From IMG/VR virus record IMGVR_UViG_2648501498_000001: DNA of 7,784 nucleotides. One strand, given 5' to 3'. The stretch's first letter is position 1. Each line of letters begins with the position of its first letter. The notes under the pieces were generated by a model. The model made no database searches, was not told the origin of the DNA, and was given only the letters and a program-made list of their open reading frames with translations. The DNA comes from a virus (lineage: Monodnaviria > Loebvirae > Hofneiviricota > Faserviricetes > Tubulavirales > Inoviridae). A program made the position numbers and the translations under genes. Positions 3,412 to 4,893 of the stretch are shown here, piece after piece.

Positions 3412-4893
3412 ATGAGTTTTTTGAAAAATATTTCTGTGTCGCTATTGTACGTTTTGTTAACAAATCACGCCTGTGCTGAAACAGCGACACTGACTACCAC
3501 AACATTTTCTTCTGAATTGTCCGGTATTATTAATCGCAAATTATCTGCAATGGGGGCCAGCGCCTCATCTATTTCGGCAACGTTATCAGGATATTCACGT
3601 GCGGCAGCGTCTTTTGCATCAAATTATGCTGCATCTGCCGGAATTTCTGCTTCAGCAATGTCGTGGAGTACTCTGGCTTACGGTCTTGGTGTAACTACTG
3701 TCAGTCTTGGAATTTATGCCGCAGGAAAGCCTTTTGCTGAGGAGGTGGCAAAATTGGTTTTAGATAAAAACGGCTATAACGCGTTTTATTACACTCCAGC
3801 CATGAGTGCGGGTGTCAAGGCCTGGCATGGCGGGTTTGATAATTGCTACGTTACCAGTACTTCGCCGTTTTCTGCTGCTGCGCGGGTTATTCAGTGCTTA
3901 CCTCCTGAAGAAAAATCCTCGCTTCAGTCGTCTTATTATACTCCTCCGAAGAGTGACGTTGATAATGAGTGGTACAGATTCTACTACGCTTATTATTTTC
4001 GAGATTCCTGGTCCCAGAGTTCGTTTGTATTCTGGTCAGTAACGTTAAGTGAGGATTCTGTTTTTTGTGATAACGGTCAGGTTCTGTTTTATTCTGACGG
4101 TAATTCTACTTGCGAGGCAGCAACCACTGAAAATCCATTCTCATCGTCTCTCCACGTGCCTTCTTTCTCTGGAAATAATCTGGCATCTCAGGATATTGCA
4201 GATATTCTTAACGGGCTGACTGAACAATTAGATGGCCTCTCTGAATATAGCGGGATATCTTCGTTTTTATTGAAATATTCCTCTGCTGACGTAGACAATT
4301 ATCGTTCTACGGTAGATCTCCGCATCGGTGATTCTGCAAGTTTTACAGAATCTGGTGTTATTGCTATTCCTCCGACACCAGGTGGTGATACCAGCAATTC
4401 TGGAGGTAAATATACCCCTCCTGTTATTGACCCCGGTTTTAAGCCCGTTGGAGGTACGGGCAGCGGTACGGGTACAGGCACTGGAACGGGTACGGGCACT
4501 GGAACGGGTACAGGCACTGGAACGGGTACAGGAGCTGGAGTCGGAACAGGTTCTGGCAGTACCACTGTAACAGGTAATGCTACGGTAAATGTTAACGTGA
4601 CTGTGTCAAATGACTTTGGCACTGCACCTTCAGTGGATACGCCTGATATTTCATCTCCTGAGCCTTCATCATTCATTTCTCCATTGTGGAATATGTGGCC
4701 TTCTGCGCGTGATTTTTCACTGACAATTCCACGGGGGCAGTGTCCTGTCTTTACATTCAATATCTGGAATAAAGATTATCAACTGGATACTTTTTGTGTG
4801 CTGCTTGATACCGATGAAGTCAGGGCCACTTTCAGGGTGATTATGACGCTGATTGGCTCCATGCTTTCATTCTTTATTGTTCTTCGGTCCTGA
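3412..4893 (+). CDS. Minor coat / adsorption protein (gpIII-like)
   Basis: 493 aa. Signal peptide ending HACA|E; Cys pairs in the N-terminal domains; Gly/Thr-rich linker [34 protein letters not shown]; C-terminal hydrophobic anchor [22 protein letters not shown]. Position after gene VIII matches Ff gene III. Confidence 0.8.
4459..4548 (+). repeat. 18-bp tandem repeat (about 5 copies, 3 near-perfect) inside the pIII gene, encoding (Gly-Thr)n
   Basis: Unit GGCACTGGAACGGGTACR at 4477-4494, 4495-4512 and 4513-4530, with degenerate copies at 4459-4476 and 4531-4548. Its mirror creates the spurious minus-strand (Pro-Val)n ORF 4299..4760. Confidence 0.8.

Follow-up and report, generated by a model that had tools for sequence, protein, structure and literature searches.

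The stretch of DNA analysed here (the 7784-nt window) is one complete filamentous (inovirus) prophage unit that integrates at the dif site of Escherichia coli, its last base adjoining the chromosomal dif sequence with one mismatch to the consensus. Over its full length it matches both of the tandem prophage copies that lie beside hipA in E. coli O166:H15 JNE070796. A Rep_trans replication initiator (1102-2328, plus strand), recognised by Pfam and PHROG matches, is followed by a small ssDNA-binding-like gene (2338-2673), a coat-like gene (2794-3102) and a small ORF of 56 aa (3237-3407). The gene that holds the repeat described below occupies the pIII/g3p position (3412-4893, plus strand; ORF and translation of 493 aa), 3' of the coat gene and 5' of the genes for a pVI-like minor coat protein with a DUF2523 domain (4911-5198, plus strand; Pfam E 2.9e-9, phrog_974), the Zot/pI assembly ATPase (5210-6268, plus strand; Pfam Zot E 1.7e-22) and the pIV secretin (6265-7524, plus strand; Pfam Secretin E 1.9e-25, phrog_1012). 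Two smaller repeats were also seen in the window. The first is a perfect 9-nt repeat, TCTTCGCCG x2.2, at 6002-6021 within the Zot/pI gene, where no copy-number change was detected, the gene measuring 1059 nt wherever its full span was seen bar two genomes (1050 nt in strains 48956 and E100341). The second is a 15-nt direct repeat at 645-674, TAAGTAGTTGACTAT x2 with 80% matches, in a minus-strand ORF of 71 aa (585-800) close to the divergent regulatory region; it scores weakly and may have arisen by chance.

Neither the nucleotide sequence of the window (megablast) nor its pIII protein (tblastn) found a match in 50,697 deposited phage records. The Zot protein is at best 39% identical to its matches, the best being in uncultivated gut-metagenome inoviruses, with others in phages of Ralstonia, Vibrio, Xanthomonas, Pseudomonas, Stenotrophomonas and Alteromonas; the organism tally of Zot matches includes no IKe- or Ff-type phage. 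No similarity to IKe, I2-2 or UPphi901 that would place the prophage with UPphi or Lineavirus (IKe, I2-2) was found in the 50,697 phage records or in the Zot tally. Ypfphi/CUS-1 was also considered as the identity of the prophage and set aside: it is probably different, a profile scan of representative genomes having given no relative of the pIII protein. The repeat-bearing gene is carried by 27 of 5426 complete E. coli genomes.

The 493-aa protein is labelled "hypothetical protein" in every RefSeq genome examined and has no match in Pfam or NCBIfam. It begins with a predicted signal peptide (aa 1-22, 3412-3477, plus strand; found by sequence inspection, with cleavage before ET) and continues with an N-terminal region that ends in a Pro/Gly-rich stretch and is presumed to bind the receptor (aa 23-347, 3478-4452, plus strand). 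Beyond the repeat lies a C-terminal domain with conserved QCPVF...DTFC motifs, delimited by alignment and PHROG matches (aa 384-493, 4561-4890, plus strand). This domain ends in a hydrophobic anchor predicted by hydropathy (aa 472-493, 4825-4890, plus strand), which is the only strongly hydrophobic 19-aa window in the protein and lies at its extreme C-terminus. The C-terminal part matches PHROGs 7187, 3942 and 815, all of unknown function, and the same C-domain family (PHROGs 3942, 7187 and 815) is found in the Salmonella prophage protein P0005, whose N-terminus has a match (E 1.5e-5) in phrog_8482, the family of the M13 g3p "attachment protein". The C-domain family is therefore linked to bona fide g3p-like proteins through P0005, the window protein having no direct match to phrog_8482. 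Aligned to M13 g3p by hhalign, the C-domain pairs collinearly but not significantly (probability 0.5%, E 0.12) with residues 352-410 (SPL.N ... C.. F.F ... Y ... C ... FR ... anchor). With six sequences in the alignment, AlphaFold2 gave an unusable model of the full-length protein (mean pLDDT 35.8).

The N-terminal family is narrow, with 7 representatives among 1.84 billion proteins. The full-length homologue search, which gave 7 matches, was swamped by low-complexity words; with the N-domain as the only query nothing was found beyond two E. coli clusters, with the C-domain as the only query there were no matches, and the profile scan of species-representative genomes recovered no relative of pIII. 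The assignment of the ORF at 3412-4893 as the pIII equivalent, by architecture and by the transitive link through P0005, is well supported, although not proven. It agrees with the original prediction that the repeat sits in an adsorption protein gene, for which gene order, the signal-like peptide, the C-terminal anchor and the connection of P0005 to the M13 g3p PHROG all speak. The N-domain is presumably the receptor-binding part.

Tandem Repeats Finder reports a repeat of period 18 at 4453-4532 (4.4 copies, 90% matches, score 125). The Gly-X array as a whole consists of six 18-nt units at 4453-4560, in frame, with 4453 as codon position 1 of the ORF at 3412-4893. In the unit maps, a single type-A unit, GGTACGGGCAGCGGTACG (GTGSGT; 4453-4470, plus strand), is followed by three type-B units, GGTAC[A/G]GGCACTGGAACG (GTGTGT; 4471-4524, plus strand, also found by Tandem Repeats Finder), and by a degenerate and invariant tail (4525-4560, plus strand) made up of 4525-4542 (GTGAGV) and 4543-4560 (GTGSGS). 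The first and third type-B units (4471-4488 and 4507-4524) are identical, and the second (4489-4506) differs from them by one synonymous A>G change. Each of the two kinds of 18-bp unit, GTGSGT and GTGTGT, is in turn composed of three 6-bp Gly-X sub-units. The three near-identical, in-frame 18-bp units with degenerate flanks had been described from the outset and stand as described; the extent originally given, 4459-4548, was too short for the full array at 4453-4560. The encoded segment comprises 36 residues (aa 348-383) of which 50% are Gly, together with Thr and Ser.

The periodicity of the array is far beyond chance: the best 72-nt window holds 61 lag-18 matches, whereas none of 2000 codon shuffles of the gene gave more than 39, and when the 6-nt units of the array were shuffled among themselves, only 2 of 5000 trials reached its 18-nt periodicity (72/90). 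Folding of the repeat as ssDNA is unremarkable (z = -1.27), and a hairpin-based DNA element at the repeat was dropped as a candidate on this value.

Array length was surveyed in 43 gene copies from 36 sources, comprising 25 complete E. coli genomes, 7 IMG/VR contigs, 3 metagenome contigs and the window. Many of the public alleles derive from assemblies, where mis-assembly of repeats can occur; the 25 complete genomes, however, are mostly long-read. The array takes 32 distinct forms in the 43 copies, ranging from 108 to 348 nt with a median of 258 (18-58 Gly-X dipeptides), and most alleles cluster at 204-330 nt. By comparison, the gene outside the array has a constant 1041 + 333 nt, a pi of 0.0058 and 22 haplotypes. 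Among copy pairs with identical flanks (n=24) the arrays differ in 79%, and the arrays of L024, L031 and L033 are separated by single 18-nt units. All 43 arrays are multiples of 6 nt in length and differ mostly in 18-nt steps, with 6-nt steps being rare. The alleles have a common layout in which a GTGSGT block and a GTGTGT block of variable length, sometimes interspersed, precede the constant tail. Alleles other than that of the window contain mostly 5-11 type-A (GTGSGT) units and 1-11 type-B (GTGTGT) units, and the longest alleles reach up to ~19 units.

Taken as a whole, the array is very probably a hypervariable in-frame VNTR, or coding minisatellite. That copy number may vary between isolates had been part of the original prediction and is borne out by the 32 arrays of 108-348 nt in 43 copies; copy number is clearly not invariant across isolates. 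A class of E. coli matches with "76% coverage", considered as a swap of the C-terminal module, was an effect of BLAST joining pieces across longer arrays, and the C-termini are all the same. The internal unit map of the array provides a very high-resolution marker for tracking the prophage between strains.

The 108-nt array of the window is the shortest form in the survey, the next being 186 nt. Compared with the prophage of JNE070796, the window shows 10 mismatches and 1 gap over the whole prophage (7676 nt) and 0 differences at the 1374 positions of the gene flanks, yet the arrays measure 108 vs 234 nt. The window array equals the JNE070796 array minus one internal block of 126 nt bounded by 22-nt direct repeats, and both arrays lack the GGTAGC (Gly-Ser) that is present 5' of the tail in all other alleles. 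A single deletion of 126 nt between these repeats would have given rise to the minimal allele of the window.

An alternative is that the short array reflects the collapse of a longer array during assembly. The members of both 90% protein clusters (P0001 and P0002) are mostly "partial" proteins of ~350 aa that stop where the array starts, the contigs L008, L009 and L042 stop at or in the array, the window is a length outlier and its specific junction is absent from IMG/VR. Against this, the exact 493-aa protein is encoded on 6 contigs that derive from three or more samples (GCA_001266375.1, SRR15382825 and SRR19671045), and one of these contigs has 2 flank SNPs and hence represents an independent genome. 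Moreover, the junction requires 24 consecutive nucleotides that JNE070796-like arrays lack, so that by reasoning de Bruijn assembly at k = 31 or more should not create it. Collapse is thus very unlikely. Since the exact protein recurs in at least three samples, in one of them with two flank SNPs, the 108-nt allele is real and inherited. In draft assemblies generally, the gene is mostly deposited as a "partial hypothetical protein" of ~350 aa because the contigs stop where the array begins, and the repeat thus systematically breaks short-read assemblies of the prophage.

Replication slippage and unequal recombination between copies are standard mechanisms by which tandem arrays change. In this gene, the two kinds of 18-bp unit, GTGSGT and GTGTGT, would gain and lose copies, and the likely routes are replication slippage together with unequal recombination between sister, tandem-prophage or replicative-form copies. 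Some indication of tempo comes from chromosomes that carry the prophage in tandem. In 5 genomes the tandem copies within one chromosome are identical, arrays included, with the caveat that assemblies may homogenise tandem copies. In E. coli RIVM_C037166 (L014 12234-13901 and 20001-21614) the tandem copies are discordant, with arrays of 294 vs 240 nt; because they also differ by 17 mismatches, they appear to be two phage variants co-integrated at dif rather than products of in-situ slippage. Slippage in situ between tandem prophage copies is consequently not supported, given that identical copies carry identical arrays and that the one discordant pair has 17 mismatches. The array changes much faster than point substitutions accrue, without sign of per-generation instability, since the tandem copies within a chromosome are identical in 5 genomes.

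The protein stays in frame because every change is a multiple of 6 nt, and such changes would alter only the length of the encoded segment (18-58 dipeptides). This bears on a different reading, in which the repeat would act as a phase-variation on/off switch or encode an antisense (Pro-Val)n ORF. A minus-strand ORF of 153 aa (4299-4760) does read through the array, which it translates as (Pro-Val)n; this antisense frame contains no stop over 158 codons (4302-4775), and it is open in the sister pIII type described below too. However, (GGN ACN)n read antisense yields only CCN and GTN codons and cannot hold a stop, and the flanks are poor in codons that create antisense stops. The antisense ORF also starts with TTG and comes with no RefSeq annotation and no homologue evidence; it was rejected as a gene, its open frame being the expected by-product of (GGN ACN)n. 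Frameshifted alleles number 0 of 43, which argues against on/off switching, and with an 18-nt unit built of 6-nt sub-units and 0 of 43 arrays out of frame, no frame shifting of the kind that marks a phase-variable contingency locus was found. The probability of a switch or an antisense gene at this site is close to negligible.

The array would encode a flexible Gly-Thr/Ser tether that joins the presumed receptor-binding part at the N-terminus of the protein to its C-terminal virion-anchoring domain, a role suggested by analogy with known linkers. Matches to the array among PDB sequences are mostly engineered Gly/Ser fusion linkers, the rest being Gly-rich or low-complexity segments. Among bacterial proteins, the Ser-Asp R region of Staphylococcus aureus ClfA is a dipeptide repeat with an 18-bp unit and strain-variable length that forms a stalk projecting the binding domain. 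ClfA is a bacterial cell-wall adhesin and not a phage protein, and differs in composition, so that the likeness is an analogy only.

Among filamentous phages, the g3p of Ff (M13/fd/f1) similarly combines a signal peptide, an N-terminal binding part, a disordered Gly-rich linker and a C-terminal anchor domain (PMC10175506, PMC12477597). The Gly-rich linkers of Ff are disordered and flexible, giving the N1-N2 domains freedom of movement with respect to the C-domain (PMC10175506; PMC12477597), and the linkers of M13 gene III are encoded by 15-nt in-frame tandem repeats (x3.9 and x4.5). The window array separates the N-terminal region from the anchoring domain at the C-terminus, where M13 gene III has its 15-nt repeats, and is thus in the position of the Ff pIII Gly-rich linkers, as had been proposed. 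However, Ff has two linkers, G1 and G2, with (E)GGGS repeats, whereas the window protein has one linker of Thr/Ser-Gly dipeptides. Furthermore, the N-domain of the window protein has no detectable homology to that of Ff, and the similarity of the C-domain is suggestive at most (hhalign probability 0.5%).

A closer precedent for the variability itself is found in the UPphi phages of Enterobacterales, where gene III is the most variable gene, with 95 protein variants in 229 genomes; the variants differ mainly in how many GGGES repeats make up the linker that joins the N- and C-domains (Shapiro & Putonti, Virus Evol 2020; PMC7307601). Both UPphi and the phage described here are E. coli inoviruses with tandem copies at dif and variable Gly-rich linker repeats in g3p (PMC7307601). 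They differ in lineage, UPphi being close to IKe and I2-2 whereas the window is without a nucleotide or pIII match in the phage collection, and in motif, with GGGES in UPphi but Gly-Thr/Ser in two 18-bp sub-arrays in the window. Spontaneous change in the length of the linker repeat has also been described in the glycine-rich region of IKe g3p (Bruno & Bradbury 1997, Gene 184:121, as cited in PMC7307601); as represented in that citation, this is a laboratory observation on one phage, unlike the natural population survey of the window gene. Copy-number variation of g3p linker repeats is thus already described for IKe and UPphi, and the same behaviour is found here in a different inovirus lineage with a Gly-Thr/Ser motif. 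Hypervariable pIII linker length is therefore not peculiar to IKe/UPphi-type phages with GGGS-type linkers, and recurs with another motif in an unrelated inovirus group.

Whether selection acts on this length is a separate matter, in that an adaptive reading is compatible with the explanation of the array as a VNTR-encoded tether and adds selection to it. Different lengths could adjust how far the protein reaches towards a receptor or co-receptor, which hosts are infected, or how antibodies or host defences are evaded, with the polymorphism kept by diversifying selection; receptor reach and antigenic variation had been suggested in the original prediction. The extreme diversity (32 forms in 43 copies) and the retention of a repeat-encoded linker at one site in relatives as distant as 35% identity are consistent with this proposal, and the clustering of most alleles at 204-330 nt, with the window as an outlier, could reflect a preferred range. 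The authors of the UPphi study raise an adaptive possibility too (PMC7307601). However, mutation and drift on a slippery repeat account for the pattern without selection, and the persistence of the 108-nt allele in at least three samples implies that short linkers are viable. Moreover, in IKe, the only experimental precedent cited, a longer g3p linker reportedly conferred no selective advantage (Bruno & Bradbury 1997, as cited in PMC7307601). Selection on length is on this balance unlikely, and a broad tolerance of linker length is inferred for the putative tether. The natural alleles of 18-58 dipeptides offer a ready series for testing the effect of linker length on filamentous-phage infection, an effect that matters for phage-display and retargeting designs.

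Repeat-encoded linkers at this site extend beyond the gene family surveyed. A sister pIII type (L007, L010 and L011), with an N-domain 64% identical and a C-domain ~95% identical to those of the window protein, has a longer (GT)n array that differs among its three members. At the linker site, P0003/L037 has a repeat of 42-nt period (x3.7) and P0010, at 35% identity, has a T/G-rich repeat, and the Salmonella proteins P0004 and P0005 have Ser/Thr-Gly linkers of different lengths. In these comparisons, the putative linker is kept at its site while its sequence turns over.

The sister type also differs from the window unevenly along the prophage. To the left of the array (replication genes, coat and pIII N-domain) identity is ~66-72%, and to the right (pIII C-domain, pVI, Zot and secretin) it is ~92% over 3.3 kb, with the step falling within ~150 nt of the array at the one boundary examined. 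The pattern points to a possible mosaic junction at the linker or close to it. The array might then also be a recombination junction at which receptor-binding N-terminal modules are exchanged between inoviruses with a common morphogenesis module. This reading is in keeping with the step from ~66-72% to ~92% close to the array and with the Salmonella proteins P0004 and P0005, in which an unrelated Ff-like N-terminus is joined to the C-domain family via a Ser/Thr-Gly linker. However, the left-hand genes may instead have diverged faster, or a breakpoint may lie near the array without involving it, and domain boundaries are favoured as junctions with or without repeats. A role of the array as junction is a tentative proposal, possible but on the less probable side.

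A more far-reaching proposal joins both ideas and regards the array as an evolvability device, its length under diversifying selection (for receptor or co-receptor reach, or for host or immune evasion) and its sequence a preferred crossover for swapping N-terminal modules onto a conserved morphogenesis module. In this combined form the proposal is distinctly doubtful. The explanation as an in-frame VNTR that encodes a tether of variable length is retained here as very probable.

Some further features of the related prophages concern their gene content. The prophages at L016 15835-25578 and L018 12834-22559 have a coat-to-secretin module of ~4.95 kb (~99% identical) in common with that at L012 682-16499, and this module is combined in E. 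coli with two different left-hand modules. The first contains Rep_trans and goes with tandem integration at dif beside hipA; the second contains an IS110-family transposase and a 2-kb "replication endonuclease" and is present in single copy between hcxB and ybiB. Variants with the IS110-type module carry a phospholipase-D-family gene 3' of the secretin. The Salmonella relative L038 likewise starts with an IS110-family gene, and because such genes are found both in the E. coli variants and in L038, the IS110-type recombinase is probably the integrase of the variants that carry it. In the related dif-side inovirus GCA_902839905.1 (L037; pIII 58% identical), a TraX-family gene (PF05857; 10388-11074) lies directly 3' of the secretin and is possibly cargo connected with conjugative pili. 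Finally, the Salmonella prophage with the Ff-like N-terminal region in its pIII is followed on its right, at a distance of ~1.3 kb, by a gene for a 161-aa protein with a TolA domain (PF06519; L038 11255-11740), which could be either a host gene or a phage-borne decoy.
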